64,000 nucleotides of DNA, from NCBI GenBank assembly GCA_051882115.1, contig JBJERF010000056.1:5093-69092 (forward strand), read 5' to 3'. The notes beneath the pieces are model-generated. The model searched no databases. It was not told the origin of the DNA and saw nothing but the letters and a program-made list of their open reading frames with translations. Shown piece after piece: positions 8,642 through 55,870 of the stretch. Each line of letters begins with the position of its first letter. Position 1 is the stretch's first letter. The stretch is from Ruminococcus sp. GTDB taxonomy: Bacteria; Bacillota; Clostridia; Oscillospirales; Ruminococcaceae. Both the position numbers and the translations under genes were made by a program.

Positions 8642-8651
8642 ATTATAAAAG

Positions 8652-8871: not shown

Positions 8872-8941
8872 TTTTATAGAAAATAGCAGCTTCAGTATAG
8901 AATCAGAAAACAAAGTAATTTTATTCAAAGGAGGAATCGCA

Positions 8942-9973: not shown

Positions 9974-9981
9974 TGAAAATG

Positions 9982-10016
9982 AAAGGACTGAATCCCTGCC
10001 GGGAATCAGTCCTTTT
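9982..10016. terminator. Terminator between convergent genes
   Basis: AAAGGACTGA-loop-TCAGTCCTTTT. Confidence 0.75.
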
Positions 10017-10038
10017 TCGTATCTGATTATGAGCGTTT

Positions 10039-11608: not shown

Positions 11609-11609
11609 A

Positions 11610-12581: not shown

Positions 12582-12600
12582 AAAGTACCTCCCTTGAATT

Positions 12601-12615
12601 TGAAAATCATTCTCA
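12601..12615. promoter_or_regulatory. Fur-family (Zur/Fur) operator
   Basis: 7-1-7 inverted repeat TGAAAAT-C-ATTCTCA just downstream of the -10 box. Confidence 0.7.
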
Positions 12616-12624
12616 TATTTATCT

Positions 12625-12653
12625 ATTATACACTGTAAACCGCAGCTTGTCAA
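12625..12653 (-). promoter_or_regulatory. Consensus sigma-A promoter of the metal ABC operon
   Basis: TTGACA-17-TATAAT on minus strand. Confidence 0.85.
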
Positions 12654-12763
12654 CCCTCAGTGTCCAATGTTTGTCGCGGAAAACGGAAAAGCATCAACCC
12701 CCTCCCACAAGGGAGGGGGATTAAGAGAGCAAGAAGCCCCCTTGCCGCCATACGCAGACGGAA

Positions 12764-13972
12764 TCATTCGTCAGCGATTGTAATGGAACTGCCGCTATAT
12801 GCTCTGTACATATAATCATTGTTTTCCGGGTTTCTTATATTGTTATACACAGTACATGAGGTTCCGCTCCAGGATCTTACAACATATTCGGTTTCACCAG
12901 AAAAGTAAATGGTATTGCCGTAAATCCAATTTTCAATTCCCCAGCCTTCTACTTGACAGTGCAGCTGAAATCCATCCACAATATTAGTATTTTCCTGAGC
13001 GTAGCATACATTGTTTCGGACGATGGTTTCGTTGCCCTTAATATCAATAAAGCTGTCTGTTGCGGTCATGCCTTCTCCGTACATAGTGCAGTCTTCAATG
13101 ATATTTCCTGTTGTATACTCTTTGATATCAACAGATTCCGCTACTGTATTCGGTCCCAGTGTGCAATTCTTCACAAGGTTATGATCACAGTCATAGGCAT
13201 AACCGCTGGTTGATTTTGCGCTTCCGATATAAATTGCTTCTCCGTATTCTGATATCAAACCGTTGTCATGAACATTGGTGCCGATGATTTGGCAATAGGA
13301 GCTTCCGTCTCTGAGATGAATACCTTCCTGACCCGTATCGTACACCTCAACAGACTCTATCACAGAATAATTGGAATGATCAAGTACAATTCCTTTCTGG
13401 GCATTGCAGCAGATCATGTCTTGTATATTCCAGTAATCTCCTGTGATATATAAGACAATTCCTTTTGATAAGTCAGTACCTTTTAAAATGGCAGGATTTT
13501 CTGGATCGGCACTTTTTATTGTAATTGGTGCAGATTCCGTTCCTTCAGAAGGAGAATAGAAAATCGAGCTTTTTGTACCGTAATCACTACTTTCGTAGAT
13601 GCCTGATTGCAGCACAATTGTATCGCCTGGGGCAGCATTCAAAAGTGCATTTTTCAGTTCTTCATCATTTGAAACAGAAATACAATTTTTCTGGGACTGA
13701 CCCACAAATTGTCTTTTCATGAAGCACAGATCAAACACATTCCATACGCCATCCTGATTGAAATCATAATTCACATCGACAGGCAGTTCCACATTTCTTG
13801 CAAGCAAAAAATCCTGTAGATTTCTGATATCCTGTATTGAATAGGAAGCTGTATTCTCAAAATTATCCGCTGTGACTCCACTTACCTTCCATAGGGAAGC
13901 GGACGGATGAAATGCAATTGCAGTACTCAGAAGCACAGAAGCAGCCGCAGCAATAGATAGATTTCGTTTCAT
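12764..13972 (-). CDS. Secreted right-handed beta-helix polysaccharide lyase (PL31-like) with degenerate N-terminal dockerin
   Basis: Signal peptide; DFNQDGVWNVFDL loop; AAPGDTIVL, GQEGIHLRDGSS, YGEAIYIGS, AESVDIKE motifs. Confidence 0.65.
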   Translation of the reverse strand: MKRNLSIAAAASVLLSTAIAFHPSASLWKVSGVTADNFENTASYSIQDIRNLQDFLLARNVELPVDVNYDFNQDGVWNVFDLCFMKRQFVGQSQKNCISVSNDEELKNALLNAAPGDTIVLQSGIYESSDYGTKSSIFYSPSEGTESAPITIKSADPENPAILKGTDLSKGIVLYITGDYWNIQDMICCNAQKGIVLDHSNYSVIESVEVYDTGQEGIHLRDGSSYCQIIGTNVHDNGLISEYGEAIYIGSAKSTSGYAYDCDHNLVKNCTLGPNTVAESVDIKEYTTGNIIEDCTMYGEGMTATDSFIDIKGNETIVRNNVCYAQENTNIVDGFQLHCQVEGWGIENWIYGNTIYFSGETEYVVRSWSGTSCTVYNNIRNPENNDYMYRAYSGSSITIADE

Positions 13973-14078
13973 GGGTATCCTTCCCCCCTTAAATTTGAGC
14001 CTCATTGAAAACTACCGTCCATTCCATTTGGTGGGATGGTACGGATTGAACAAAACAGAAGCTGGATTGTATATGTTT

Positions 14079-14107
14079 ATTATAATATTTCACGCCCTGG
14101 ATGTCAA
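14079..14107 (-). promoter_or_regulatory. Consensus sigma-A promoter of the lyase gene
   Basis: TTGACA-17-TATAAT on minus strand. Confidence 0.8.
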
Positions 14108-14196
14108 TCGGGATTCCTGTTTTTTACAGGAATCCATTTATAAAGTATAGTCTGTTTGTAGAAGCAATTCATGCCTGTCCTTTCAGTATCCGCTTC

Positions 14197-15738
14197 TTAC
14201 AAAAGCGGTGAAAACAATCTGAGAATCTGATTCCACAAGCGCAGCAGTCCGGATGGTGCTTTTTTGTATTTTTCCGTAACTTCACAGCAGCGGGGCATTG
14301 TTTGCAGAAAATCCTCCTTCACATCCTGTACAGCATCGCACTGTGCAAAGAACACAGCATTTTCAAAATGGAAGTATAAGCTGCGGTAATCCAGATTGAT
14401 CGTACCGACTACTGCGGTGCGGTCGTCACATACGCATTGTTTTGCATGTAAAAAGCCGGGGGTGAATTCATAAACCCTTACACCGCTTTCCACCAGTTGA
14501 TGATAGTAGGAGCGAGTGAGCTGATATACAATTTTCTTATCCGGAATACCAGGTGTAAGAATTCGTACATCCACGCCTCTGCGTGCGGCAAGCGTTAATT
14601 CCCGACTCATTTCATCGTCAATAATCAGATAGGGTGTCATGAACCAGATATACCGTTCTGCGCTCTTGATCATATTCATATATACATTTTCGCCGAGATA
14701 GATATCATCCAAAGGAGAATCTCCATAGGGCTGAACATAGCCTGCACCGGAACAGGAAGAGCATATGGGTGGAAAATACGGTGTAAAATCTGAATCTGTC
14801 TCCTGAATGGTATTCCACATTTCCAGAAACTGTACGGTCAGATTCTGTACAGCATCACCGGTCAGGCGCAGTCCGGTATCCTTCCATTCTCCATAGGGAT
14901 GGGTTATATTGAAATATTCATCGGCAAGATTGTATCCGCCGGTAAAACCGACTTGGCCGTCAATGACCGTGATCTTCCTATGATCCCGATTGTTCATGAA
15001 TACATTGATCACTGGAAGCAGAGGATTAAAAACACGGCACTGAATACCGTCTTTTTTCATACGCCGTATAAATTCCGGGCTGATGAAGCCCACACTTCCG
15101 ATATCATCATAAATGATGCGAACTTCAACACCATGAGCGGCACGTTCAGACAGAACATGCCGGATGCGTCCGAATGCAGCTGCATCCTCAATGGCATGGT
15201 ATTCCATAAAAATGAATGATTCAGCCTTTGACAGCGCATCAATCAGTGCATCCAGTGCGTGACAGGTGTTTCCATAAAAGCGCACTTCTGTATGGTTGTA
15301 AGGAGGATATTGGCTGTCATTCCATATGTAGCGCATTTGATTGGTAAGGCTGGAGCCCTGCTGTTCTGCCTCCTGTAGAATTGTTTCTGAGTGGCTGAGG
15401 CGGCTGCGCAGCAGAGAACCGATGCGTTCAAATTGCTTCTGTTTCCGTTTGGTCACACTGGAACGTCCCGTCAGCAGATATAAGATCAGACCAACCAGCG
15501 GTGAAATCAGAATCAGAATGACCCAAGGCAGCTTGAAAGCCGCATTGTTATGTTTATTGATGACCTCCAGTACGATTAAAATTGCAATGATATTTGTAAT
15601 TGTAGAAATCCAGATGCTGGATTGGTTGAATTTCAGAAACAGCAGCAGCACCCATCCGATTTCAATGAGAATTGCAATGATGACAAAGATCAGACGGCTG
15701 ATGCTGTTTTTTACAGAATCATCATATTTTTTGCCCAT
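14197..15738 (-). CDS. cls: Cardiolipin synthase
   Basis: Two HKD motifs (HRKITVID, HAKQCVCD), N-terminal TM helices; start behind GGAGG. Confidence 0.92.
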   Translation of the reverse strand: MGKKYDDSVKNSISRLIFVIIAILIEIGWVLLLFLKFNQSSIWISTITNIIAILIVLEVINKHNNAAFKLPWVILILISPLVGLILYLLTGRSSVTKRKQKQFERIGSLLRSRLSHSETILQEAEQQGSSLTNQMRYIWNDSQYPPYNHTEVRFYGNTCHALDALIDALSKAESFIFMEYHAIEDAAAFGRIRHVLSERAAHGVEVRIIYDDIGSVGFISPEFIRRMKKDGIQCRVFNPLLPVINVFMNNRDHRKITVIDGQVGFTGGYNLADEYFNITHPYGEWKDTGLRLTGDAVQNLTVQFLEMWNTIQETDSDFTPYFPPICSSCSGAGYVQPYGDSPLDDIYLGENVYMNMIKSAERYIWFMTPYLIIDDEMSRELTLAARRGVDVRILTPGIPDKKIVYQLTRSYYHQLVESGVRVYEFTPGFLHAKQCVCDDRTAVVGTINLDYRSLYFHFENAVFFAQCDAVQDVKEDFLQTMPRCCEVTEKYKKAPSGLLRLWNQILRLFSPLL

Positions 15739-36419: not shown

Positions 36420-37216
36420 AGGATATTACCATTGGCCAGTATTTTCCGGGTGACAGTCTGCTGCATCGTCTGGATGCACGGTTCAAAATTGTCATGACGC
36501 TTTTGTACATCATTATGCTGTTTATGGGTAATGCACTATACTCCCTTTCTTTTGGGATGGTATACTGCATAACAGCACTGATTCTTTCGGGATTGCCGCT
36601 GAAGCTGTTCTGGAAAAGTCTGAAGCCATTGATTCCGATTCTGATGATTACGGCTGTTCTGGATCTTCTGTTTATGACAGATGGTACGGTTTATTTTCAG
36701 GTGGGCTTCTTAAAAATAACGGAGGATGGTGTTTTTACCGCCGTGCGTATGGTGGTGCGGATTATTTTCCTGATTATTGGTTCATCGCTTCTGACCTATA
36801 CGACCTCACCGATTCAGCTGACCGATGCCATTGAACGGCTGCTGTCCCCCTTGAAGAAGCTGCATTTTCCGGTGCATGCTTTTGCCATGATGATGACCAT
36901 TGCTCTGCGGTTTATTCCCACATTGATGGAGGAAACAGATAAGATTCTTGCCGCACAGAAGGCAAGAGGCGCAAGTTTTGATACAGGGAAGCTGAAGGAT
37001 AAGGCAAAAGCCTTGGTTCCGGTGCTGATTCCGCTTTTTGTATCTGCATTTCGCCGTGCGGAGGAGCTTGCAACAGCTATGGAATGCCGATGCTACCGGG
37101 GAGATGTGGGACGCACCAAAATGAAGCAGATGCATGCCGCTGTACGGGATTGGCTGGCATTGAGCGTGACCCTTGTGATGCTGGGCGGTGCAATTGCCGT
37201 GTGCATTTTATTTTGA
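36413..37216 (+). CDS. ecfT: ECF transporter T component
   Basis: IGQYFPGDS, ALRFIPTL, ARG and CRCY coupling motifs. Confidence 0.93.
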   Translation: MLKDITIGQYFPGDSLLHRLDARFKIVMTLLYIIMLFMGNALYSLSFGMVYCITALILSGLPLKLFWKSLKPLIPILMITAVLDLLFMTDGTVYFQVGFLKITEDGVFTAVRMVVRIIFLIIGSSLLTYTTSPIQLTDAIERLLSPLKKLHFPVHAFAMMMTIALRFIPTLMEETDKILAAQKARGASFDTGKLKDKAKALVPVLIPLFVSAFRRAEELATAMECRCYRGDVGRTKMKQMHAAVRDWLALSVTLVMLGGAIAVCILF

Positions 37217-37230
37217 CAGGAGAGGTGCAA

Positions 37231-39942
37231 ATGAATTCTGAAATCATGACAGGTTCTGCTGCTGTACCGGATCCTGAATCGGCTGCCATGAAAACTCAAT
37301 TGTGTAAAAAAAAGGCAGATACAAAAATTTATCTGCTTTTGTCTTTTTTTGTACCGTGTATACTGGTAGGCATCGGCTGGATGCTTCTGGGTGTGCATCC
37401 CTTCGGAGAGGGTCAGATTCTTGTAACGGACTTCTGGCATCAGTATTATCCCTTTGCCAATATTCTTCATGAAAAGCTGCAAAGCTTTTCCTCGCTGTTC
37501 TATACATGGGATTCGGGCATGGGTTCCAACTTTCTTGCCATGATGGCATACTACGCAGCCAGTCCGCTGAATCTGCTGACAATCTTTGTACCGGATGCCT
37601 TTTTGCGGGAAGCCATTACATGTATTCTGCTGATAAAAATCGGCTGTGCCGGATTTTTTATGGCGTTATTTTTAAAGGGCACTTTCCGGCGGAATGATGT
37701 ATCTCTTTGCTGCTTTTCGCTTTTGTATGCCCTTTGCAGCTATATTATGGGCTATTACTGGAATACCATCTGGATAGATACGGTGGCACTTCTGCCGCTG
37801 GTTATGCTGGGTGCAGTACAGCTGGTGCGTCATCGGAAATGTGCGCTGTATGCAATAGCACTGGCAGCAGCACTGATTTCCAATTACTATATTGGTTTGT
37901 TTATCTGTATTTTTACGGTTCCTGCGTTTTTTTGTATCTGTCTGTTTGAGGGGACAAGACCGGTTTATTTTCTGAAAAGCGGTCTTATGATGCTGGGCAG
38001 TACGGCAGTGGGCTTAGGACTGAGCGCATGTATGCTGCTGCCTGCTTATTTTGCTCTCCAGCTGACCAACAGTGCAGAGAATACCTTTCCGACTGTGGTG
38101 AGCTTCTATGAAAAATGGATTGATTTATTTGCCAATATGACGGCTTTCCGGACACCGACTGTCAAAGAAGGTCTGCCGAATCTGTACTGCGGCATTCTTT
38201 GTATTGTTTTGTCTGGTGTGTTTCTGCGTTCCCGTTCTGTACGGATTCGTGAGAAGGTAACAGCTGTGCTGATACTGGGCTTTCTGCTGTTGAGCTGTAA
38301 TATGAATATGCTGAATTTCATCTGGCATGGTTTTCATTTTACCAATATGCTGCCGTACAGATTTTCCTTTTTATTTTCATTTGTGCTGATTTTGTTGGCG
38401 TATCGTGCATTTATTCTTGTGCTGGAACGGAAAATCAGGCTTCTGGACTGTATTGCCATGGCTGTTATGGCAGCAGGTTTTTTTGTGATCACATGGTTTT
38501 CAGAGAAAAATTCTGATGAAGTCATTGCTATGTGGATGAGTCTGGCAATGTCTGTATTTTATGTGGCGGTTTTGTTTTTGTATGAACGCCGGATCCTTCG
38601 TGCATCGGTCATGTGTTTTCTGATATCCATGGGTTTGCTGTTTGAAATGTTTCAGCATGTGCGCATCAGTACCCGTGCGGTGGGCACATCCGATTATAGC
38701 AGCTATCCTTCAAAAAATGCAGAAATACAGCAGCTTCTGGAGGAAATTCGTGCCGAGGATGATGCACTTTTTTATCGGACAGAAATTGCATCGTGGTATA
38801 CGCTCAATGACCCGGCACTGTATTCCTATCATGGCGTTTCTCAGTTTTCATCCATGGCGAACAAAAATGTAACGACCTTTCTGCGGACATTGGGATTGCC
38901 CGGCTCGGAGGCGGGCAACCGGTATTATTATGCCCTCACATCGCCGCTGACCCATATGTTCACCGGTATCAAGTATATCCTTTCACGCAGCGGTGATGTG
39001 ATGGATACAGCAACGCTTACAGAAGCAGGCTCAGCCGGCACTGTAAAAATTTATGAAAATCAGTATGACCTGCCCATTGGGTTTATGGTTGACGAGGAAA
39101 TCCTTTTCTATGATGGTCAGCAGTATGCCAATCCCTTTGAAGCACAGAATGCCCTGTTTTCCAAGGCAACAGGCGTGGATGAACCGCTGTTTACACCGAT
39201 TGATGTCACGCATACCAGACATTCCGGAATGGCAGAGGAAAACGGTGTTTATCGCAGCGGCTATGGCACCTATACATTCCGCACGGATGAAACAGCGGAT
39301 GCTCATACGTTTCAGTTTAATTTTATTCCGGAGGAAGACTCGGTGCTGTATGCCTATTTCTGGGCAGATGGTGTCAGCTGTGTGAATATCCTACAGGATC
39401 AGAAGACATTTGGTTCGTACAATGTAACACGTCAGCAAGGCTTTATTGCACCCATTGGTACCTGTAAAGCCGGTGTGAAAGCTTCTGTGCGTGCGGATAT
39501 CACGGATGAAACCATCACACACGGTTCATTGCGTTTATATGTCTATGTACTGAATACAGAGCTTCTGGATCAGGCATATGAGCAGCTTCAGGCGGGCAGC
39601 ATTCAGCTGGAAACATTTTCTGACACATCTTTATCCGGTACAGTCCATGCACAGCAGGACGGACTTTGTTATTTTTCCATTCCGCAGGAAAAGGGCTGGC
39701 ATGCCTTTGTGGATGGAAAAGAAGTGCAGACAGAAACAGTGGGCGGTGCGATGCTGGCTGTTCCTGTTTCTGAAGGCACGCATACAGTGGAGCTGCACTA
39801 CCAGCCTGAGGGCTTTGCAGTGGGAATGATACTGACCGGCATTTCATCTGCTGTATGGATTGGAATGTTTGTTTTAGAAAAGCGAAGAACAAAAGCGGAT
39901 GCTTCCGCAAAGGAAATTCATGCAAAGAAGGTGAAGGAATGA
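37231..39942 (+). CDS. YfhO-family GT-C membrane glycosyltransferase
   Basis: DFWHQYYPF, GMGSNF, YRFSFLFSF, SIPQEKGWHAFVDGK; many TMs. Confidence 0.88.
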   Translation: MNSEIMTGSAAVPDPESAAMKTQLCKKKADTKIYLLLSFFVPCILVGIGWMLLGVHPFGEGQILVTDFWHQYYPFANILHEKLQSFSSLFYTWDSGMGSNFLAMMAYYAASPLNLLTIFVPDAFLREAITCILLIKIGCAGFFMALFLKGTFRRNDVSLCCFSLLYALCSYIMGYYWNTIWIDTVALLPLVMLGAVQLVRHRKCALYAIALAAALISNYYIGLFICIFTVPAFFCICLFEGTRPVYFLKSGLMMLGSTAVGLGLSACMLLPAYFALQLTNSAENTFPTVVSFYEKWIDLFANMTAFRTPTVKEGLPNLYCGILCIVLSGVFLRSRSVRIREKVTAVLILGFLLLSCNMNMLNFIWHGFHFTNMLPYRFSFLFSFVLILLAYRAFILVLERKIRLLDCIAMAVMAAGFFVITWFSEKNSDEVIAMWMSLAMSVFYVAVLFLYERRILRASVMCFLISMGLLFEMFQHVRISTRAVGTSDYSSYPSKNAEIQQLLEEIRAEDDALFYRTEIASWYTLNDPALYSYHGVSQFSSMANKNVTTFLRTLGLPGSEAGNRYYYALTSPLTHMFTGIKYILSRSGDVMDTATLTEAGSAGTVKIYENQYDLPIGFMVDEEILFYDGQQYANPFEAQNALFSKATGVDEPLFTPIDVTHTRHSGMAEENGVYRSGYGTYTFRTDETADAHTFQFNFIPEEDSVLYAYFWADGVSCVNILQDQKTFGSYNVTRQQGFIAPIGTCKAGVKASVRADITDETITHGSLRLYVYVLNTELLDQAYEQLQAGSIQLETFSDTSLSGTVHAQQDGLCYFSIPQEKGWHAFVDGKEVQTETVGGAMLAVPVSEGTHTVELHYQPEGFAVGMILTGISSAVWIGMFVLEKRRTKADASAKEIHAKKVKE

Positions 39943-45212: not shown

Positions 45213-45241
45213 TTGACAAATATTTGAAAGTGTGTTATAAT
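45213..45241 (+). promoter_or_regulatory. Consensus promoter of the tRNA operon
   Basis: TTGACA-17-TATAAT with upstream A-tract. Confidence 0.85.
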
Positions 45242-45281: not shown

Positions 45282-45355
<74 letters not shown>

Positions 45356-45359
45356 ATAT

Positions 45360-45436
45360 GCGCCTTTAACTCAGCTGGATAGAGTAACTGCCTTCTAAGC
45401 AGTAAGCCACTGGTTCGAATCCAGTAAGGCGCGCCA
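45360..45436 (+). tRNA. tRNA-Arg(TCT)
   Basis: Cloverleaf, ACTGC-CTTCTAA-GCAGT arm, CCA end. Confidence 0.97.
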
Positions 45437-45469
45437 ATATTTACAAATCGCCTTTCGAGGCGTATAGAT

Positions 45470-45547
45470 GGTGGGTGTAGCTTAGCTGGTTAAAGCGTCG
45501 GATTGTGGTCCCGAAGACCGTGGGTTCGAATCCCATCTCCCACCCCA
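45470..45547 (+). tRNA. tRNA-His(GTG)
   Basis: G-1:C73 pair, anticodon loop TTGTGGT, CCA end. Confidence 0.95.
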
Positions 45548-45579: not shown

Positions 45580-45817
45580 GCTGTTTAGATGCAAATGAAA
45601 TGTTATAGCAACAGGAAAAATCGATTTTACATAAAAATTTGAAAAAAGAGAAAATGCCTGTTGCAATTTCGGATAAAGTATTGTATAATAATTCATGTAT
45701 ATGCCGAATTTGAAAAAATGCTGCCTGAATCAGATGGTTTTATGGTTTTGACAGCGATTCAGGGATAGATTTGTTATACGGATAATATAACCAGTGTAAA
45801 GGAAGGTACAATAAAGT

Positions 45818-47221
45818 ATGGCTTTTTCGGATTTGTTTTTCTTGTATTTATTTTTGCCGCTATGTGTGGCGTTCTATTTTCTTGCGAAAACGCAATATCG
45901 TAATGCAATATTGATTCTGTTTTCGTTGATTTTTTATGCATGGGGAGAGCCTGTGTATTTGTGGCTGCTGCTGTTCGCTACATGTATGAATTATGTGTTC
46001 GGACGAGCCATTACATATGGAAACGGGGGTTCTGGTTCAAAACTGGGCTTTGCCTTTGCCATGGTGATGAATCTGGGGCTGCTTGTAGGGGTGAAATATA
46101 CCGGATTTTTCATTGAAAATATCAATGCAGTCAGCGGAGCAAATCTTCCCGTTCCGGACTTGCCTTTGCCTATGGGTCTGAGCTTTTATACATTCCGTGC
46201 GATTTCTTATATTGTAGACTGTTATTGGGGAAAGATTCGTGCAGAATCAAAATTCAGCTGTTTTCTTCTTTACATGACTTTATTTCCCATTACAACGCAG
46301 GGGCCTATTGTCCGTTATGAAACCATACAGACCCAGCTTCATGCACGCACCACCACTGTGCTGGATTTCAGTGAGGGATTGGGACGTGTTGTCATAGGTC
46401 TTGCCAAGAAGGTGCTCCTTGCGGATCAGCTTGCCAATATTGTGGATCAGTTTCTGGGCGGTTCGGCCATTGAGGCTCAGACTGCACTGGGAACATGGTA
46501 TGGCGTGATTCTGTATGCGCTTCAGATTTATTTTGACTTTTCCGGCTACTCAGACATGGCACTTGGTATCGGGCGGTTGTTTGGTTTTCGGTTTGAAGAA
46601 AACTTCCGCCATCCGTTCCTGTGCAAGGATGTGACAGAATTCTGGCAGAGATGGCATATTTCCTTGGGCACATTTTTTAAGGATTATGTTTTGTATATGC
46701 CGATTTTCGGCAAACGCCGGAAATACGGCGGATTGTTTCTGGTCTGGTTCTGTACGGGTCTGTGGCATGGCGCAAGCTGGAATTTTATAATCTGGGGTCT
46801 TTACTACGGTTTGTTTATTCTGATTGAAATGCTTATCGGCAAAAAGACTATGAAAAAAATTCCTTTGAGTATACGTCATTTGTATAATAAGCTTGTCATT
46901 ATAGTGGGTTTTGGCATTTTCTATTTTACAGATTTGGGAAAGCTGCTGACTTGTTTGAAGAATCTGTTCTTTATGGGCGGAAACGGTGTAACAGATGTGG
47001 TACTGACGACTTCCATCCGGAACAATCTGTTTTTGATACTTGCTGCTGTACTCTGCTGTTTCCCGCTGCTGGAAATTCCCAAGAAGCGTATGCAGAATGA
47101 TGCAAAGCTGTATCTGACCATGCAGACCGTCGGTACAGTGCTGGCAGCTGCATTGCTGCTTGTCAGCAGTATTTTCCTTGTCAATGCAACCAACCGTCCG
47201 TTTTTGTATCTGCAATTTTAA
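45818..47221 (+). CDS. MBOAT O-acyltransferase (AlgI/PatA/DltB-like)
   Basis: PMGLSFYTF, QIYFDFSGYSDMA, EFWQRWHISL, GLWHGA; C-terminal FLYLQF. Confidence 0.92.
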   Translation: MAFSDLFFLYLFLPLCVAFYFLAKTQYRNAILILFSLIFYAWGEPVYLWLLLFATCMNYVFGRAITYGNGGSGSKLGFAFAMVMNLGLLVGVKYTGFFIENINAVSGANLPVPDLPLPMGLSFYTFRAISYIVDCYWGKIRAESKFSCFLLYMTLFPITTQGPIVRYETIQTQLHARTTTVLDFSEGLGRVVIGLAKKVLLADQLANIVDQFLGGSAIEAQTALGTWYGVILYALQIYFDFSGYSDMALGIGRLFGFRFEENFRHPFLCKDVTEFWQRWHISLGTFFKDYVLYMPIFGKRRKYGGLFLVWFCTGLWHGASWNFIIWGLYYGLFILIEMLIGKKTMKKIPLSIRHLYNKLVIIVGFGIFYFTDLGKLLTCLKNLFFMGGNGVTDVVLTTSIRNNLFLILAAVLCCFPLLEIPKKRMQNDAKLYLTMQTVGTVLAAALLLVSSIFLVNATNRPFLYLQF

Positions 47222-47241
47222 AGGAAGGAGACACGTAGGCT

Positions 47242-49497
47242 ATGTTTGAAAAGAAAAAGAATTATGCACAAGGCGAAATGCGTCCCCTTTCTGCATTTTC
47301 CAAAAAGAGCAGTGAAAAGCCGGTTTCCAGAAAGAATGCACCCATGCAGGTACCCGTATCTCCGCAGGTACAGAGTACGGTATCCTCTCTGTCTGAGCAG
47401 AATAAAATCACCGATGCAGCCACCGTGCAGCAGACACCACTCCGTGCAGCAGCTGCTGTTCAACAGATGCACAAACAGGAGCCGATTGCGCCATCCAAGC
47501 CGGAGCCTAAGGCAGAGGAGGCAGCTTATGAAATGCCGGAAGTGTATATTCCGAAGCCGATACCGGAAACGGTACATACTGTGCGTAAGCCTCAGCCAAA
47601 GCCTGAAACAAAGCCGGAGCCGAAGCCGACGGTAAAGCCGGAGGAAAATTTGCCCCCAAAACCGGAACCGAAGCCTGATGGAAAGCCGGATATTCAGTCT
47701 CAGCCGGAATCTGTAATAGAAAAAAAGACGGAAATGAAACCAGAGTCTCAGCCGAAAGTACAGCCGAAAAGACGGGTTTCCAAGGCACCGGATTTATCCA
47801 ATAAGGCAGAGCGGGATGCTTATTTCAATCAATTTCTTTCAAAAAATTCCTCAGGACAGCGCAATGAAGCACGCCGTACAGCACAAGCAGCTGCATTATA
47901 TCATCAGACTGCCGCCCAGCGGGATGCAGTTCCTCAGAATACCAATCCTTTCCGGAACCGACCGGCAGATCGTCCGGTTATTTCCCATGCAAAGGAGGAG
48001 CCATCGGAAGTGCCTGTGCAGAAGCCGGTACAGCATGAAGAACCGGCTGTGGAACCGGCACCTGCATCCATGACAGAAACCATCGAGCAGGCAGCTATGG
48101 CAAAGCGTCAGGTCAAGAAGGCTAAGGAAGCACAGACTCTGACGCCAGAGATGAAGCGTGCACAAGTGCTGAGTGCTTCCATGCGAACGGTTGCACTGGT
48201 TGGAGCTGTTTTGGGATGCGGTTTGTTCTTACTGCTGGGGGAGCGTTCTACATTTTCTGCGGAGGAAAACCGTAAGCTTGCAGCATTTCCGGAATTTTCC
48301 ATACAGTCCTATTTAAACGGCGAATACACCGCCGGAATTTCTTCCTTTTACAATGATACGGTTCCCATGCGCAGTACATTTAAAAGAGCCATTGCCTCTA
48401 TGGAAACGCTGCGGGGTCTTGGCACCAACGATGAAGAAAATGTCGTATTCTTTGGAAATGTAACGCAGAAAAATCAGGATACTGCGGTACAGACAAATGA
48501 GGAAAATCAGAATTCCACAGAAGCCCCGGCTGTGAACAGTGCTGCCGCAGTTACAGATTCCTCTGAACGCATAACAGAGATGGCAACTGAAGCGGAGGAG
48601 CCTGCGGAGCCTCCGGTTGAGGTAGGGGACAGCATCGTCATTTATAATAAGCGTGCCATCAGCTTTTACGGCGGCGGTTACGGTGTGGAAGAGGAATATG
48701 CAAATGTGCTGAATGATTTTAAAGCGGCTCTTCCAGATGTGAAGGTGTATTCTATGATTGCCCCTACAGCTGTATCCTTCTATCTTCCGGAAGAATATCA
48801 GGATTATACAGCCAGTGAAAAGGAGAACATCGACCGTGCAAACAGCTGTCTGGACGGTGTGACACCGGTGGATGTATATTCCGTTCTGGAAGCGCATCAA
48901 AACGAGGAAATCTATGCACGTACGGACCATCACTGGCTGCCGCTGGGTGCATATTATGCAGCCCAGACTTTTGCCAAGACAGCCGATGTGCCCTTTACAG
49001 ACATTTCTCAGATGGATTCCAAATCCTATGATGATTATGTAGGCTCTATGTATACCTATACTTCCAGTCCGATTTTGTCGGAAAATCCGGAGACATTTAC
49101 GTATTATATTCCGAAGAATGAGTATACGGTAGAATACTATGACAGCTATTTCAATTTCCAGTATGAAGATGAGCTGCTGATGAATCTGGAGGGCTATGAT
49201 CCGGTGAATTACTATCTGGTATTCATGGGCGGAGATGATAAGATTGTGCATATCAGCACGGATACGGATAATGACCGCACGCTGGTTATTTTCAAGGATA
49301 GCTATGGCAATGCAATGGTGCCGTGTCTGGTGGGTTCATTTTCTGAGATTTATGTATGTGACATGCGTTACTTTTATTTAAATGCAGCATCCTTCTGTGA
49401 GCAGGTGGGTGCAACGGATTTGCTCTTTGCCATGAACACATTCAGTGCAACCGGCGGTAATGAGGATTATCTGGAGCAAATATTGTACTATCAATAA
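47242..49497 (+). CDS. DHHW-family (AlgJ/DltD-like) acyltransferase with long Pro/Glu/Lys-rich N-terminal region
   Basis: FSAEENRKLA after TM, RTDHHW, FKDSYGNA. Confidence 0.85.
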   Translation: MFEKKKNYAQGEMRPLSAFSKKSSEKPVSRKNAPMQVPVSPQVQSTVSSLSEQNKITDAATVQQTPLRAAAAVQQMHKQEPIAPSKPEPKAEEAAYEMPEVYIPKPIPETVHTVRKPQPKPETKPEPKPTVKPEENLPPKPEPKPDGKPDIQSQPESVIEKKTEMKPESQPKVQPKRRVSKAPDLSNKAERDAYFNQFLSKNSSGQRNEARRTAQAAALYHQTAAQRDAVPQNTNPFRNRPADRPVISHAKEEPSEVPVQKPVQHEEPAVEPAPASMTETIEQAAMAKRQVKKAKEAQTLTPEMKRAQVLSASMRTVALVGAVLGCGLFLLLGERSTFSAEENRKLAAFPEFSIQSYLNGEYTAGISSFYNDTVPMRSTFKRAIASMETLRGLGTNDEENVVFFGNVTQKNQDTAVQTNEENQNSTEAPAVNSAAAVTDSSERITEMATEAEEPAEPPVEVGDSIVIYNKRAISFYGGGYGVEEEYANVLNDFKAALPDVKVYSMIAPTAVSFYLPEEYQDYTASEKENIDRANSCLDGVTPVDVYSVLEAHQNEEIYARTDHHWLPLGAYYAAQTFAKTADVPFTDISQMDSKSYDDYVGSMYTYTSSPILSENPETFTYYIPKNEYTVEYYDSYFNFQYEDELLMNLEGYDPVNYYLVFMGGDDKIVHISTDTDNDRTLVIFKDSYGNAMVPCLVGSFSEIYVCDMRYFYLNAASFCEQVGATDLLFAMNTFSATGGNEDYLEQILYYQ

Positions 49498-49569
49498 AAA
49501 GAGAGAAAAAATAGGAGCTTGCACACAGATATTGATGCATGCAGGCTCTGCAATAAAAGGAGCAACAAA

Positions 49570-51369
49570 ATGAAAGAATTAGAATATCCCTTTGACGGCG
49601 CATGGATTCTGAAGAATCGCCGTAAAATCAAGAAGGCACTTCTGGCGGAGGATACGTCCCGCATGGAAAAGCGGATTGCCGTTTTAGGCGGCTCTACAAC
49701 CAATGATATTGTGGCAATGATGGAGTTGTTTTTGCTGAATCAGGGCATCCAGCCGGTGTTTTATCAGTCGGAGTATGCAAGGTACTGGCAGGATGCTATG
49801 TTTGAAAATCCGGAGCTGGAGGCGTTCAAGCCGGATCTGATTTTCATCCATACCACTTCACGGAATCTGACCCGATTTCCGGAAAGTGTGACCTGTTCTG
49901 CTGAGGAAATGAATGAGGCACTGGAGCAGCAGTATCAGCATTTTGAGCAGATGTGGGAGCGCATTGCACAGGTTTATCACTGTCCGGTGATTCAGAATAA
50001 TTTTGAAATGCCTTCCTACCGGCTGCTGGGCAACAGCGACGCCTCTGATATACACGGCAAAATTCACTTTATCACACGGCTCAACTGCAAGCTGTATGAT
50101 TATGCCCAGACCCATCCGTCTTTTTACATCAATGACATCAACTATGTGTCTGCCTGCTATGGGTTGGATGCGTGGCTGGAGCCGAATTACTGGTATCTGT
50201 ACAAGTATGCTTTATGTGTGCCGGCAATTCCGGATTTTGCATACAATACGGTTCGTATCATCAAATCCATATACGGCAAAAACAAAAAGGTGCTGGCACT
50301 GGATCTGGACAATACGCTCTGGGGCGGTGTTATTGGGGATGATGGTCAGGAAGGCATTGAAATCGGACATGAAACAACCATGGGGCAGGGCTATGAGGAG
50401 GTGCAGCACTATCTCAAGGCGCACAAGGAACTTGGGGTATTGCTGACGGTCTGCTCGAAAAATGAAGAGGAGAATGCCTTGTTGGGACTGAATCATCCCA
50501 GCTGTATCCTGCATCCGGAGGATTTTGTGGTCATTCAGGCGAACTGGGACAGCAAGGACAGAAACTTGCTCCAGACGGCTGAGGCACTGAATCTCTTGCC
50601 GGAGAGTTTTGTCTTTGTGGATGACAACCCGGCAGAGCGTGCCATTGTATCCGGTCAGATTCCCGGTATGGCAGTACCGTCTTTTGATACAGTGGAAACA
50701 TGCATTCGTATATTGGACAGAAGCGGTTATTTTGAGGTAACATCTCTGTCAGCGGATGATGCCAAGCGCAATGAGATGTACAAGGCGAATGTACAGCGGG
50801 CAAAACGTCAGCAGTCCTTTGCCAATTACACAGAATATCTGCTGAGTCTGGACATGCAGGCTCAGATTGTGGACTTTTCCCCTATATATCTTCAAAGAAT
50901 TGTACAGCTGACCAACAAGAGCAATCAATTTAATCTGACAACGAGACGGTATCAGCTCAGCGAAATGGAGCAAATTGCAGCGGATCCCAAGTACATTCGC
51001 CTGTGTGGGAGCCTGAAAGATCAGTTTGGTGATAATGGCATTGTATCCATTGTAATCGGTGAGATGATGGAACAGACGCTCCATATTGATTTGTGGCTTA
51101 TGAGCTGCCGTGTATTGAAGCGAGATATGGAATTTGCCATGCTGGATGAGCTGGTGCGTCAGTGCCGGAAAAAGGATATCAGAAAGATTGTAGGTTATTA
51201 TTACAAGACACCGAAAAATGCAATGGTTCAGGATTTGTATGGAACATTCGGCTTCACGAAGGTGAAAGCATTTGAAAACGGAGACAGCACATGGGAGCTG
51301 GATGTTGCATCTTATAGAAATAAAAATCATGTAATTACCGTGAACGAGAAGGAGAGTACAGCATTATGA
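49570..51369 (+). CDS. FkbH-family HAD-IIIC glyceryl transferase/phosphatase
   Basis: DLDNTLWGG, SKN, FVFVDDNPAER, NKSNQFNLTT, MSCRV. Confidence 0.9.
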   Translation: MKELEYPFDGAWILKNRRKIKKALLAEDTSRMEKRIAVLGGSTTNDIVAMMELFLLNQGIQPVFYQSEYARYWQDAMFENPELEAFKPDLIFIHTTSRNLTRFPESVTCSAEEMNEALEQQYQHFEQMWERIAQVYHCPVIQNNFEMPSYRLLGNSDASDIHGKIHFITRLNCKLYDYAQTHPSFYINDINYVSACYGLDAWLEPNYWYLYKYALCVPAIPDFAYNTVRIIKSIYGKNKKVLALDLDNTLWGGVIGDDGQEGIEIGHETTMGQGYEEVQHYLKAHKELGVLLTVCSKNEEENALLGLNHPSCILHPEDFVVIQANWDSKDRNLLQTAEALNLLPESFVFVDDNPAERAIVSGQIPGMAVPSFDTVETCIRILDRSGYFEVTSLSADDAKRNEMYKANVQRAKRQQSFANYTEYLLSLDMQAQIVDFSPIYLQRIVQLTNKSNQFNLTTRRYQLSEMEQIAADPKYIRLCGSLKDQFGDNGIVSIVIGEMMEQTLHIDLWLMSCRVLKRDMEFAMLDELVRQCRKKDIRKIVGYYYKTPKNAMVQDLYGTFGFTKVKAFENGDSTWELDVASYRNKNHVITVNEKESTAL

Positions 51370-51641
51370 CACACGAGGAAATTATGAAGCGTCTGACGGA
51401 GGTATTCCGTGATGTATTTGATGATGATTCCATCTGCATCCATGATGAAACCACAGCCAACGATATTGAGGAATGGGATAGTCTGGAGCATATCAATCTG
51501 ATTGGTGCCGTGGAGTCGGAATTCAATATGAGCTTTCAGATGCGTGAAGTATCGAGCATGAAAAATGTGGGAGAGATGGCAGATATTATTGCACAGCGAG
51601 CACAGGCTCCAAAGAAGAAAAAGCGGGGATTCTTCCGCTGA
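51366..51641 (+). CDS. Acyl carrier protein
   Basis: WDSL phosphopantetheine site; overlaps FkbH stop. Confidence 0.9.
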   Translation: MTHEEIMKRLTEVFRDVFDDDSICIHDETTANDIEEWDSLEHINLIGAVESEFNMSFQMREVSSMKNVGEMADIIAQRAQAPKKKKRGFFR

Positions 51642-51656: not shown

Positions 51657-51700
51657 GGGGCTGTTCCACCGTTTCAATGGTGGGATGGTCCCTGTATTTT
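51657..51700 (+). terminator. Terminator of the MBOAT operon
   Basis: GGGGCTGTTCCACC-loop-GGTGGGATGGTCCCT then T-rich tail. Confidence 0.7.
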
Positions 51701-51874
51701 TATACGAATCCCTTTAACTCTGGTAGACAAGAGTCTGCCGGAGTTTAGCCGACGAAGTCGGCGTAAGGGATTGTATGAGACAAGGTTTGACCGCAAATCG
51801 GTCAAATCAGCGGATGCCACAGGCAGCCGCCCTCCAAACTGTCATATCTATTACAGTTTGGAGGATTCGTATTA
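51701..51874. mobile_element. MITE-like multi-hairpin element
   Basis: Terminal IR ATACGAATCC/GGATTCGTAT with TA at both ends and five internal hairpins. Confidence 0.6.
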
Positions 51875-51890: not shown

Positions 51891-52631
51891 ATGCATTTTG
51901 AAACAGAGAAGAAAATTGCGGAGCATCTGTTTTCACAGCGTGAGGACGACTTTGAGCATGCTTCATTTGACCGTGAGATTGCATTTTATGAGAGCATATG
52001 TTCGGGCAATATGGTTCTTGTAAAAATGCTTGCCACTCCGCTTTGCAGCGAAGGGTATGGAACGCTCAGTAAGGATCATCTGAGGAATCTGAAATATCAC
52101 TTTGCGATTTCTGCGGCATTGATTGCGAGATTTTGTGTAAAAAGCGGAATGACGCCTGATACAGCTTATCAATTGAGTGATTATTACATTATGAAAGCCG
52201 ATGAAAGCAGTTCACAGGAAGCTGTACATCATGTACATATGGAAATGATTGAAAGCTATACAATGAAAATGAGAAGTGTAAAAAACGGAAAGATCTATTC
52301 CAAGCAAATTGTGAGAGCAATGGATTATATCAGCGATCATCTGCACAGTAAAATACTGCTTGCGTCCGTTGCGAATGATCTTCAGTTGAGTACATCCTAT
52401 CTTTCAAGGCTGTTCAAGTCTGAAACGGGCACATCGTTCAGTGATTATGTGAATGGTAAAAAGATTGAGGCAGCTGCCAATCTTCTCCGTTTTTCAGGAT
52501 ACTCTGATCTTGAAATAAGCAATTTGTTTTGTTTCAGTTCACAAAGCTATTTTATAAAAGTGTTCAGAAAGTATATGAAAATCACACCGAAAGAGTACAG
52601 GAACCGTTTTCATATGCCGGATGTTCCGTGA
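51891..52631 (+). CDS. AraC-family transcriptional regulator
   Basis: SYLSRLFKSETG...FSSQSYFIKVFRKYMKITPKEYR. Confidence 0.9.
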   Translation: MHFETEKKIAEHLFSQREDDFEHASFDREIAFYESICSGNMVLVKMLATPLCSEGYGTLSKDHLRNLKYHFAISAALIARFCVKSGMTPDTAYQLSDYYIMKADESSSQEAVHHVHMEMIESYTMKMRSVKNGKIYSKQIVRAMDYISDHLHSKILLASVANDLQLSTSYLSRLFKSETGTSFSDYVNGKKIEAAANLLRFSGYSDLEISNLFCFSSQSYFIKVFRKYMKITPKEYRNRFHMPDVP

Positions 52632-52795: not shown

Positions 52796-55700
52796 ATGAA
52801 AAAAAGCACATGCAAACGCTGTACAGCAGCCATTGCAGCCTGTGCAGTTATGATGTCTGCCATGTCTTTCATTCCGGCAGCTACTTTTGCGGCATCTAAC
52901 ATCATCAGCAATTCAACATTTGAATCGGGTACATCCGGATGGGGAACCTACAAGGAAAGCGGCGGAGCCTGCTCGCTCAGTACAGAAAACGGACAACTTG
53001 CCCTTACTGTCAGCAGTGTAGGAAAGGTCAACTATGCTGTTCAGGTGTATTATGATATCATTCCGCTTTATCAGAATGGTGTATATCGCCTGAAGTATGA
53101 TATTTCTTCTACAACAGACCGATATATTGAGGGAATGATTCAGCAGAACGGCGGTACCTATCAGGCTTACACATGGAAAGGACTTTCACTGACTTCTACG
53201 CCTCAGACTGTGGACTATGAGTTTACGATGGAAGCAGAAACCGATATTATGGCAAAGCTTGTTTTCAACTGCGGGATTCAGACAAGTTATGAGGGTGAAC
53301 TGCCGGAACATAAAATTTATATTGACAACGTTTCACTGGAGCTTGTGGATGACAGCAAGGTGGATTATGCTGCATTCAGACCCTATGAACCGCCGATTGT
53401 TGTTAATCAGGTGGGCTACAAGAGCAACTGTAAAAAAACAGCTGTTTTCCGTAATGCAGGGGATGAAAGTGAATTTTCTGTCTGGAATGCAGATACCCAT
53501 CAGGTGGTTTACACAGGCACACTTTCAGATGAGATTCAGAATACCTCAGCCGGAGAGACAAACAGAACAGGGGATTTTTCTTCTGTGACAGAAACAGGAA
53601 GATATTACATCACCTGCGGCAATCTGGACAACTCCTATACCTTTGAAATCAGCAATGATGTATATTCAGATCTTTTGGATGACACCGTAAGAATGTTGTA
53701 TTTGCAGCGATGCGGAACGGCGGTAGAAGACAGCACTTTCGGACATACCGCTTGTCATACCGGACTTGCAACGGTTTATGGAACCAATGAAACCATAGAT
53801 GTTTCGGGCGGTTGGCATGATGCAGGCGATTACGGAAGATATGTAGTACCTGCTGCAAAGGCAGTTGCCGATCTGCTTTATGCGTATGAAGCGAATCCAG
53901 AGCAATATAGTGACCAGAGCGGCATTCCGGAAAGCGGAAACGGAACGCCGGATATTCTGGATGAAGTACGTTATGAGCTGGAATGGATGAAGAAAATGCA
54001 GAGAGCAGACGGAGGCGTATATCATAAGGTTACCTGTGAGAACTTTCCGGGCTATGTTTCTCCTGAGAAGGAAACTGCTCCGTTAATTGTGACACCGGTT
54101 TCTACTACAGCGACTGCTGATTTTTGTGCTTCCATGGCACTTGCTTATGAATTCTATCAGGACATTGACGCTGACTTTGCGCAGGATTGTTTGAGTCGTG
54201 CGGAACGTGCATGGAGCTTCCTTGAAGCCAATCCGAATCTGATTTTCAGCAATCCTGAAGATATTACAACCGGAGAATATGGCGACACATCTGATAAAGA
54301 TGAACGTTACTGGGCTGCAGCACAGCTTTACCGTGCAATAGGCAGCAGTAAATATGAAACTGTCCTGAGCGGTATGTCCGCTTCCAAGGGATTGGACTGG
54401 TCAACTGTGGGCGATTATGGAAATATTGCCATTCTCACAGCTGAAAATATCAGCAGTAGTTCTGAAATTTATACAAAGGCAAAAAATGCTGTGATTTCAC
54501 AGGCAGATAAATTTGTCACAGTTTCCGGCAATTCGCCCTATGGTGCGGCAATTACAAAGTTTGACTGGGGCAGCAATATGACCGTAGCAAATGCTGGAAT
54601 TATACTCAGCACGGCATACGGACTTACAAAGGATGAAAAATATCTGGATGCTGCAAATGCGCAGCTGGATTACCTGCTGGGAACAAATCCTGTGGGAACA
54701 TGTTTTGTTACAGGATACGGAACGGTTTCACCTGAAAATCCTCATCACAGACCATCTATGGCAGCAGGAACTGCTATGAAAGGCATGCTGGTAGGCGGTG
54801 TAAATTCCAATCTGGAGGACAGTGCAGCGAAAGCATACTGTCAGGATGTGCCGGCTGCAAAATGCTATGTGGATCATTCCGAGAGCTATTCTACGAATGA
54901 AATTACCATTTACTGGAATTCTCCCCTGACCTATCTGATGGCTCTGACCGATTATGCCGATCAGCAGGGCAGTGGATTTGTATTGGGCGATATCAACAGC
55001 GATGGTCACATCAATTGCTTTGATATGGTTTTCGCAAAAAGGGGACTGAAGGAAGGCGGATTTTCTGATGCTGCTGCTGCAAAGGCGGCGGATGTAAATC
55101 AGGATGGTACGTATACCATTGCAGACGCTGTTCTGCTTCAGAAATATCTTGTATGTCAAATCAAGAGTTTTCCAAAGGCAGAACCGGTTGAAGGGGAAAT
55201 GATTGATTACGGAACACCCATGAATGAAAATGCTACCGTTATCGCAGATTTCAGAAAGGGTGAAACCCCTGTGTTCTTTGCATCAGATGGCTGGACGAAC
55301 GGAAGCTGCTTTGACTGTGGCTGGTATAAGCGGAACACCTCGTTTGACGGCGGCGTATTGAATCTGACCATTGATAAGGACTCTACAGGCAAGTATAACT
55401 ATTCTGCCGGCGAATATAGAACGGTTGACTTCTATGGATATGGCTACTATGAAACATCCATGCAGGCGATCAAGAACGATGGTGTTGTATCGTCTTTCTT
55501 TACCTATACCGGTCCATCTGATAACAATCCATGGGATGAGATTGATATTGAGGTGCTTGGTAAGGATACAACGAAGGTTCAGTTTAACTATTACACCAAT
55601 GGTGTAGGAAACCATGAATATATGTATGATCTTGGATTTGATGCATCGGAAGGATTCCATACCTATGGATTTGACTGGCAGCCCGATCATATAACATGGT

Positions 55701-55870
55701 ATGTTGACGGGAAAGCCGTTTACACAGCTTCCAGCAATATTCCCTCCACTCCGGGTAAAATCATGATGAATGTATGGCCTGGTACAGGTGTTGATGGCTG
55801 GCTGAATCCATTTGATGGCAATACGCCGCTAACCGCACGTTATCAGTGGGTAACATATCAAGCACAATGA
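52796..55870 (+). CDS. Multimodular cellulase/lichenase: SP-CBM4-Ig-GH9-dockerin-GH16
   Basis: VNQVGY Ig domain; GGWHDAGDY, PHHRPS, YSTNEITIYWN (GH9); GDINSDG...DVNQDG dockerin; WDEIDIE (GH16). Confidence 0.93.
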   Translation: MKKSTCKRCTAAIAACAVMMSAMSFIPAATFAASNIISNSTFESGTSGWGTYKESGGACSLSTENGQLALTVSSVGKVNYAVQVYYDIIPLYQNGVYRLKYDISSTTDRYIEGMIQQNGGTYQAYTWKGLSLTSTPQTVDYEFTMEAETDIMAKLVFNCGIQTSYEGELPEHKIYIDNVSLELVDDSKVDYAAFRPYEPPIVVNQVGYKSNCKKTAVFRNAGDESEFSVWNADTHQVVYTGTLSDEIQNTSAGETNRTGDFSSVTETGRYYITCGNLDNSYTFEISNDVYSDLLDDTVRMLYLQRCGTAVEDSTFGHTACHTGLATVYGTNETIDVSGGWHDAGDYGRYVVPAAKAVADLLYAYEANPEQYSDQSGIPESGNGTPDILDEVRYELEWMKKMQRADGGVYHKVTCENFPGYVSPEKETAPLIVTPVSTTATADFCASMALAYEFYQDIDADFAQDCLSRAERAWSFLEANPNLIFSNPEDITTGEYGDTSDKDERYWAAAQLYRAIGSSKYETVLSGMSASKGLDWSTVGDYGNIAILTAENISSSSEIYTKAKNAVISQADKFVTVSGNSPYGAAITKFDWGSNMTVANAGIILSTAYGLTKDEKYLDAANAQLDYLLGTNPVGTCFVTGYGTVSPENPHHRPSMAAGTAMKGMLVGGVNSNLEDSAAKAYCQDVPAAKCYVDHSESYSTNEITIYWNSPLTYLMALTDYADQQGSGFVLGDINSDGHINCFDMVFAKRGLKEGGFSDAAAAKAADVNQDGTYTIADAVLLQKYLVCQIKSFPKAEPVEGEMIDYGTPMNENATVIADFRKGETPVFFASDGWTNGSCFDCGWYKRNTSFDGGVLNLTIDKDSTGKYNYSAGEYRTVDFYGYGYYETSMQAIKNDGVVSSFFTYTGPSDNNPWDEIDIEVLGKDTTKVQFNYYTNGVGNHEYMYDLGFDASEGFHTYGFDWQPDHITWYVDGKAVYTASSNIPSTPGKIMMNVWPGTGVDGWLNPFDGNTPLTARYQWVTYQAQ

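Follow-up and report, generated by a model that had tools for sequence, protein, structure and literature searches.

In this work, we analyzed a window of 64,000 nucleotides (nt) from the genome of a Ruminococcus sp. (assembly GCA_051882115.1, contig JBJERF010000056.1) and, within it, a cassette of four genes encoding a membrane-bound O-acyltransferase (MBOAT), a DHHW-family SGNH-like transferase, an FkbH-like loader and an acyl carrier protein (ACP). The cassette is an uncharacterised variant of MBOAT-SGNH envelope acylation working like the Dlt pathway, and what is new in it is the combination: membrane and outer parts of the PatA1/PatB1 type stand together with a cytoplasmic part of the FkbH family. 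We consider it likely that an acyl group, whatever its identity, is relayed from the loader through the ACP and the MBOAT to the DHHW protein. It also seems on balance probable that the module, by this full stepwise relay, links a small hydroxy-acyl group, D-glycerate being the likeliest, by ester bonds to an extracytoplasmic envelope polymer. Gene content and order, the conservation of catalytic residues, co-location across species, predicted folds and RNA-library contigs lying on the genes were all observed directly.

The four gene products

The genes of the cassette are the following:

45818..47221, + strand: MBOAT gene, 467 amino acids (aa), PF03062
47242..49497, + strand: DHHW-family SGNH-like transferase gene, 751 aa, PF14286
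49570..51369, + strand: FkbH-like loader gene, 599 aa from the ATG, TIGR01686 and FkbH_N PF21211
51366..51641, + strand: ACP gene, 91 aa, ACP models, below cut-offs

As the initial annotation had it, these are four co-directional open reading frames. A gap of 20 nt separates the MBOAT and DHHW genes and one of 72 nt the DHHW and FkbH genes, and the FkbH and ACP genes overlap by 4 nt (ATGA). The annotated family of the FkbH gene was likewise borne out, but its proposed TTG start at 49519 was not: the ATG at 49570, preceded by AAAGGAG, is the likelier one, and in the TTG frame the alignment with loader orthologues begins only at residue 10-18.

The MBOAT matched PF03062 with 85.9 bits. In orthologue alignments, built with sequences from 80 species-representative genomes and used for all residue conservation given here, His280 and His317 were invariant (32 aligned sequences), and the FxYxxF hexapeptide F462-L-Y464-L-Q-F467, carried on extra C-terminal transmembrane (TM) helices recognized as hydrophobic segments, formed the exact C-terminal end in 32/32 sequences. 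This hexapeptide is the acyl shuttle, as demonstrated experimentally for PatA and DltX: PatA auto-acetylates the hexapeptide tyrosine and PatB then takes the acetyl group, while in the Dlt pathway the motif is found on the separate microprotein DltX (Anderson, Schultz and colleagues, PMC12148441). The window MBOAT combines the catalytic His and the C-terminal FxYxxF hexapeptide of the PatA/AlgI class; given the position of the hexapeptide, its architecture appears to be of the PatA/AlgI type with a fused shuttle and not that of a DltB/DltX pair, so that no DltX would be needed. No separate DltX microprotein gene was found in the operon, whose 20-nt and 72-nt gaps are too small for one. Against the DltB equivalog model TIGR04091, the MBOAT scored 146.4 bits, below the cut-off of 375. 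DltB-likeness was also considered as a sign of carrier use and rejected, since scores on this model hardly differ among the four MBOATs of the genome (141-148 bits), all of which end in FxYxxF.

Three further MBOAT genes are thus present in the genome, one followed by an AlgX-like and one by a GDSL-like gene, both of SGNH type, and one with a partner of no family match, and no loader or carrier protein was found beside any of the three. Two pairs of an adenylating enzyme and a carrier protein occur elsewhere in the genome and adjoin no MBOAT. These further MBOAT and carrier-pair loci lie at C41:60607-62900, C98:2368-4200, C131:1-2269 and C41:77129-78893.

The DHHW domain of the second product (residues 342-705 of 751) scored 178.5 bits against PF14286, above the gathering score. 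The protein matched 4NZK, a solved, uncharacterised protein of Eubacterium siraeum (E 1.4e-73), and PatB1 of Bacillus cereus, 5V8E (E 4.4e-8); in the alignment with PatB1 the KDS and DxR motifs coincide. The motifs D562-H-H-W565, K685-x-S687 and D707-x-R709-Y710, among them the Block V DHHW and Block II DxRY motifs of the family, were present in 53/53 DHHW-protein sequences and align with the catalytic residues of PatB1, namely nucleophilic Ser337, Asp357 and Arg359 (PMC9487903). Since the only TM segment (312-335) is preceded by a K/R-rich stretch on its N-terminal side, the DHHW domain is predicted to lie outside the cell. The MBOAT is therefore adjoined by a predicted extracytoplasmic SGNH-type transferase with an intact catalytic set. 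The N-terminal ~310 residues of the DHHW protein (47242-48170) are Pro/Lys/Glu/Ala-rich, of low complexity and apparently cytoplasmic; this region is highly variable in length among the orthologues, which range from 382 to 1103 aa in total.

The loader scored 268.5 bits against TIGR01686 (cut-off 146.65), over model positions 3-320 of 323, and comprises three domains:

Residues ~30-238: N domain, SGNH-fold
D245-L-D247-N-T249, S296-K297, K329 and D351-D352: HAD-IIIC phosphatase domain
Residues ~395-590: GNAT-fold C domain, with Cys513 in MSCRV

HAD motifs I-IV (D245, D247, T249; S296; K329; D351, D352) and Cys513 were invariant in 32 orthologues, and the HAD motifs and the Cys513-bearing SCRV were also kept in an ACP-FkbH fusion protein of another genus with 30% identity. 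This intact phosphatase site argues for a phosphorylated acyl compound, such as 1,3-bisphosphoglycerate (1,3-BPG), as the donor. The AlphaFold2 model (predicted local distance difference test, pLDDT, 82.8) falls into three parts, of which the first two can be superposed on BF1531, a protein from structural genomics (3SLR; Foldseek E 7e-24, sequence E 1.2e-48), and the third has a GNAT fold with many matches at ~E 1e-6. In the model, Cys513 sits between the β-strand 503-511 and the helix 517-534. Modelled alone (pLDDT 84.6), the N domain shows an SGNH/GDSL-hydrolase fold, with Z 13-15 and 165-188 residues aligned to GDSL esterases. This domain (Pfam FkbH_N, 49570-50290) has an invariant GGST serine and NN pair, and no Asp-x-x-His block was found among its invariant residues. 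It might proofread or help acyl transfer.

By its sequence, the fourth product appears to be a divergent, dedicated ACP. Its matches stayed below the cut-offs (PP-binding 18.7 bits, ACP models 35 bits) and it is not a DltC equivalog, but W37, D38, S39 and H42 were invariant in 34 sequences, Ser39 being the phosphopantetheine-attachment site within a W-D-S motif. The genome encodes a 4'-phosphopantetheinyl transferase. Complex prediction for the ACP and the MBOAT gave 0.51 (median of three runs) versus 0.00 for the best of three controls, which is weak support: the mark was passed by 58/80 solved complexes and 2/110 mismatched pairs, and among the passes at <=0.60 there were only 7 solved complexes and both mismatches. 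At least 75% of contacts were shared between the runs, and the pLDDT of the partner was 76 or higher. As DltB-DltC complexes have been solved, this pass may mirror only a likeness to them.

Contigs of pig-gut metatranscriptomes (Logan; two studies) covered parts of all four genes with ~96-100% identity, and two of them crossed the MBOAT/DHHW junction. Such contigs show neither strand, transcript ends nor expression level, and they are compatible with expression of the operon. The AraC gene downstream was nearly devoid of contig cover, to which we attach no evidential weight.

Gene order across genomes

The survey of linkage covered 80 species-level loci, 75 of them with usable flanks. FkbH and ACP genes were adjacent in 78/80 loci, and an MBOAT and/or a DHHW gene stood beside them in 66/75 loci with usable flanks. 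The arrangements were distributed as follows:

MBOAT-DHHW (1-3 copies)-FkbH-ACP: 36 loci
The same order, with the contig ending before the MBOAT: 10 loci
DHHW-DHHW-FkbH-ACP, with housekeeping genes upstream and no MBOAT: 3 loci
FkbH-ACP-MBOAT (type B): 13 loci
MBOAT upstream of FkbH-ACP, no DHHW: 4 loci
FkbH-ACP alone, next to pfk, dnaX and recR: 9 loci
Too short to classify: 5 loci

The initial annotation would have been refuted by a lack of co-conservation of the four genes in other genomes; they are, however, co-located in most of the 80 loci. No fifth conserved gene was found around the cassette in these loci.

In 10/13 type-B loci, the gene after the MBOAT encodes a membrane-anchored SGNH-like protein of 371 aa, which has no Pfam match and bears SGNH-like GSS and GGGH motifs. 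The type-B MBOAT scored 155-203 bits against the window MBOAT, to which the carrier-less MBOATs of the window genome are closer (274-285 bits). Because the type-B MBOAT belongs to a different lineage, FkbH-ACP appears, from these comparisons, to be tied to MBOAT/SGNH pairs as a class and in two lineages, which would be hard to explain by chance adjacency. The type-B loci are embedded among envelope-glycan genes, encoding GT2, a Wzy_C-like protein and a DegT aminotransferase, and four of them continue with genes for a MaoC dehydratase and a short-chain dehydrogenase/reductase (SDR). MaoC plus SDR is the set expected for the conversion of glyceryl-ACP to lactyl-ACP, as in the FkbH-DH-KR loading modules of polyketide synthases (PKS). 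By this analogy, the two genes would fit a glyceryl-to-lactyl conversion, and the MaoC/SDR variant points to a glycan as acceptor and to an acyl group of the lactyl type. The full order FkbH-ACP-MBOAT-371-aa SGNH-like protein-MaoC dehydratase-SDR is seen in Lachnospiraceae at L055 7992-13828, and also at L032, L043 and L053; a gene for a 583-aa membrane protein is among the neighbours of this variant.

The loader has a patchy distribution, having been found in 37/120 genera of the family (30/93 among high-quality genomes), and DHHW genes were found in 107/120. The machinery is common, and the cassette is an accessory added to it. A comparison of the presence and absence of DHHW and loader genes was tried and was uninformative, DHHW genes being nearly universal in the family. 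Cultured carriers of the cassette are Ruminococcus flavefaciens 007c and ATCC 19208, and Hominimerdicola aceti. By loader protein, the host stands nearest to genomes of uncultured Ruminococcus and Oscillospiraceae from the guts of animals and humans.

Two other settings of FkbH genes were observed. In the Lachnospiraceae loci L079, L085, L072 and L063 (~8000-14900), FkbH-ACP without MBOAT/SGNH lies directly upstream of phosphofructokinase, dnaX, recR and aldose 1-epimerase genes. The fusion protein mentioned above (L095 5725-6963, G104:C21) has 412 aa, with an N-terminal PP-binding carrier domain fused to an FkbH domain; it is 30% identical to the window loader, keeps DxD and SCRV, and has radical-SAM, PqqD/peptidase and nucleotidyltransferase genes as neighbours. 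FkbH chemistry may therefore also occur in a cluster resembling those for ribosomally synthesized and post-translationally modified peptides (RiPP-like).

A proposed acyl relay and its alternatives

The relay that we propose (i) would start in the cytoplasm, where the loader would take the glycolytic acyl phosphate 1,3-BPG and Cys513 would form a 3-phosphoglyceryl thioester; (ii) the HAD domain, with Asp245 as the nucleophile, would remove the 3-phosphate; (iii) the glyceryl group would pass to the phosphopantetheine thiol on Ser39 of the ACP, by the mechanism reported for OzmB; (iv) glyceryl-ACP would dock at the cytoplasmic face of the MBOAT, its phosphopantetheine arm entering the tunnel used by acyl-CoA in PatA; (v) His317 of the MBOAT would catalyse acyl transfer to Tyr464 of the FxYxxF shuttle at the outer face; (vi) the membrane-anchored DHHW domain would take the acyl group onto Ser687, with His563/564 as the base and Asp707 and Arg709 as the oxyanion hole; and (vii) it would hand the group to a hydroxyl of a wall glycopolymer, be it a secondary cell-wall polysaccharide, lipoteichoic acid, peptidoglycan or an exopolysaccharide. 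The switch from an acyl-CoA to an acyl-ACP donor would be a minor chemical change, since a phosphopantetheine arm bears the acyl group in either case. Glyceryl is proposed as the acyl group by analogy with OzmB/FkbH, and a polymer as its acceptor likewise by analogy.

The likeness to the Dlt pathway lies in the route, in which the acyl group goes from a phosphopantetheinylated carrier to an MBOAT, to the FxYxxF tyrosine outside, to an SGNH-type enzyme and to a wall polymer (PMC12148441). The two systems differ in their parts. Whereas the Dlt loader is an adenylating ligase, that of the cassette is FkbH/HAD-type, so no ATP-dependent activation of a free acid would be needed; the cassette MBOAT scored 146 bits versus the DltB cut-off of 375 and its tyrosine shuttle is fused, not on DltX; the outer transferase is of the DHHW family and not of the DltD family, and there is no DltC equivalog. 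The initial annotation had proposed a Dlt-like pathway with FkbH replacing DltA: the sequence tests support this design, but the MBOAT is PatA/AlgI-type instead of DltB-type. In keeping with the same proposal, the operon holds no DltA, and no TIGR01734 match above the cut-off was found in the genome, a 2.1-Mb metagenome-assembled genome that is 76% complete.

The membrane and outer parts resemble PatA1/PatB1 of Bacillus cereus/anthracis, which serve the O-acetylation of the secondary cell-wall polysaccharide. There, too, an MBOAT with a fused FxYxxF is paired with a DHHW/SGNH transferase that is a protein of its own, anchored in the membrane; the cassette aligns with PatB1 at the catalytic Ser, His and Asp/Arg. 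An MBOAT with a fused shuttle and a separate SGNH partner is likewise found in CcsH/CcsI of Clostridioides difficile and PatA/PatB of Neisseria and Campylobacter. In contrast to this class, which uses acetyl-CoA and has no carrier or loader, the cassette has a conserved ACP and an FkbH-like loader. With FkbH/OzmB it shares a HAD-IIIC phosphatase and a C-terminal cysteine-bearing domain next to a dedicated ACP, the expected product being glyceryl-S-ACP. Unlike the FkbH/OzmB systems of polyketide, tetronate and nonribosomal peptide synthetase (NRPS)/PKS loading, however, it has no PKS/NRPS, oxidising enzymes or methyltransferase nearby, its loader is extended by a 240-aa N domain of SGNH fold, like that of the uncharacterised BF1531 (3SLR), and its glyceryl group would be an end product exported as an ester and not a building block. 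No biochemically characterised pathway of this design turned up in the searchable papers, as had been surmised, nor did a paper linking an FkbH loader to an MBOAT/SGNH envelope system; the co-mentions of FkbH and MBOAT in that literature concern cyanobacterial aeruginosin/suomilide NRPS clusters, in which the genes act in separate steps.

Several observations weigh against the proposed relay. The link of FkbH-ACP to MBOAT/DHHW is frequent, not obligatory: nine of the 75 loci have neither an MBOAT nor a DHHW gene nearby, and the three DHHW-DHHW-FkbH-ACP loci have no MBOAT. The window MBOAT carries no sequence sign of carrier-protein use, and its nearest paralogues, the carrier-less ones of its own genome at 274-285 bits, are presumably acetyl-CoA users. 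Cys513 is a candidate counterpart of the (phospho)glyceryl-carrying cysteine in OzmB. The characterised glyceryl transferase/phosphatase OzmB has only 366 residues and thus no SGNH-fold N domain, so that the chemistry of the loader may differ from that of classical FkbH proteins. RNA-library contigs prove neither transcription nor a single transcript. No glycan-synthesis gene adjoins the cassette in the window, which leaves the acceptor without a local pointer. The substrate, each transfer step and the acceptor of the cassette were all derived by analogy.

The nine solitary FkbH-ACP loci, the PatA-type architecture of the MBOAT and its closeness to carrier-less paralogues, and the far wider occurrence of DHHW genes than of the loader (107/120 versus 37/120 genera) would all suit two unrelated modules lying side by side, namely an acetyl-CoA-using O-acetyltransferase pair of the PatA1/PatB1 type, and an FkbH-ACP pair that makes glyceryl-ACP for another purpose, for example for lipids, glycolipid anchors or small metabolites. 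The description of non-Dlt MBOAT/SGNH pathways as dependent on acyl-CoA and free of a carrier protein (PMC12148441) points the same way. We nevertheless hold this explanation to be rather improbable: the same gene order recurs in at least 36 species, and 13 more have the other MBOAT lineage with its SGNH partner; operon-like spacing and a single terminator speak against unrelated neighbours; no ketosynthase, condensation, acyltransferase or glycosyltransferase gene is conserved near FkbH-ACP; and the ACP-MBOAT complex prediction gave a weak pass with clean controls.

The same relay might also carry another acyl group, such as 3-phosphoglycerate (the HAD step being later or absent), lactate or pyruvate made via enzymes encoded elsewhere, or a further acyl group drawn from an acyl phosphate that is plentiful in fermenters, for example acetyl phosphate. 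We regard this as unlikely, although it deserves to be taken seriously. Complete and invariant HAD phosphatase motifs would be hard to explain with a non-phosphorylated donor such as acetyl phosphate, the window operon has no dehydratase or reductase, and all characterised FkbH-type enzymes and domains that we found described use 1,3-BPG to make glyceryl carriers. On the other side, the substrate is deduced only from homology to a domain family, the additional SGNH-fold domain of the loader is not in OzmB, and the MaoC/SDR cassettes show further processing of the ACP-bound group in some lineages. Very improbable, in our opinion, is a genuine relay that ends on something other than a glycopolymer, for instance on membrane lipids, on surface or S-layer/cellulosomal proteins or on secreted small molecules. 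The characterised MBOAT partners of the DHHW, AlgX and DltD types all acylate glycopolymers, and the type-B cassettes lie inside envelope-glycan loci. In favour of such another acceptor are the lack of a linked polymer-synthesis gene in the window and the cytoplasmic N-terminus of the DHHW protein, which is long, variable and of low complexity and hints at unknown partners.

Genomic setting and significance

Two further features flank the four genes:

45661..45689, + strand: candidate sigma-70 promoter TTGCAA-17-TATAAT, 128 nt 5' of the MBOAT start
51657..51702, + strand: intrinsic terminator, 16-bp stem with 8 G-C pairs, 4-nt loop and T-rich tail

Both had been annotated initially. The terminator, 16 nt past the ACP stop, is a strong hairpin at 51657-51692 and the top-ranked terminator-like site of the region, as expected of a single terminator after the operon. 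The promoter motif is present, with 10/12 matches to the consensus, but its status is that of a candidate only, because consensus matches in the sequence barely exceed the expectation from shuffles (23 versus 16.6). The statement that there is no PKS/NRPS nearby was also correct for the ~13 kb upstream and 4 kb downstream of the operon.

Upstream of the operon lie cvpA-like and clpB-like genes and then, between clpB and the operon, tRNA genes Gly-TCC, Arg-TCT and His-GTG (45282-45547), which have a perfect sigma-70 promoter, TTGACA-17-TATAAT with an extended TG (45213-45241). No terminator-like site was found between the tRNA genes and the MBOAT gene, so that transcription starting at the tRNA promoter may continue into the operon. 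An Rfam scan of the operon and its leader returned three tRNAs only and no riboswitch at the gathering score. Downstream, an AraC-family regulator gene (51891-52631) is followed by a gene for a 1024-aa cellulosomal enzyme (52796-55870) with CBM4/9, an Ig-like CelD_N, GH9, a dockerin and a GH16 lichenase-type domain, by which the host is a cellulosome-bearing fibre degrader. A YfhO-family membrane protein (37084-39942, 952 aa, 573 bits) is encoded 6 kb upstream of the operon. Among the members of the YfhO family are GT-C glycosyltransferases acting on the teichoic acids of Bacillus and Listeria. With the two LtaS-like genes found elsewhere in the genome, this gene hints that lipoteichoic acid is made and decorated in the host.

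Known MBOAT-SGNH pathways add acetyl groups from acetyl-CoA, or D-alanine from DltC, to wall polymers, and such decorations govern resistance to lysozyme and antimicrobial peptides as well as autolysis, the anchoring of S-layers and host recognition. A mechanistic paper of 2025 describes the MBOAT/SGNH pathways other than Dlt as working without a carrier protein (PMC12148441); if the proposed relay is real, the cassette is a counter-example, and carrier-protein donors are not unique to the Dlt pathway. Rather more tentatively, since we would not put it at quite an even chance, Gram-positive surface polymers may bear an O-glyceryl ester, or an O-lactyl ester in the MaoC/SDR variants, fed from 1,3-BPG via a carrier into a PatA-type MBOAT. 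This would couple the envelope chemistry of many gut and rumen Clostridia to glycolytic flux, and would equip the surface of fibre degraders abundant in gut and rumen with a new ester of greater hydrophilicity. The family of the loader is also very large, with at least 8000 clusters at 90% identity that are named only 'HAD-IIIC family phosphatase' or 'FkbH-like protein', so a single biochemical study of the loader would annotate thousands of genes.

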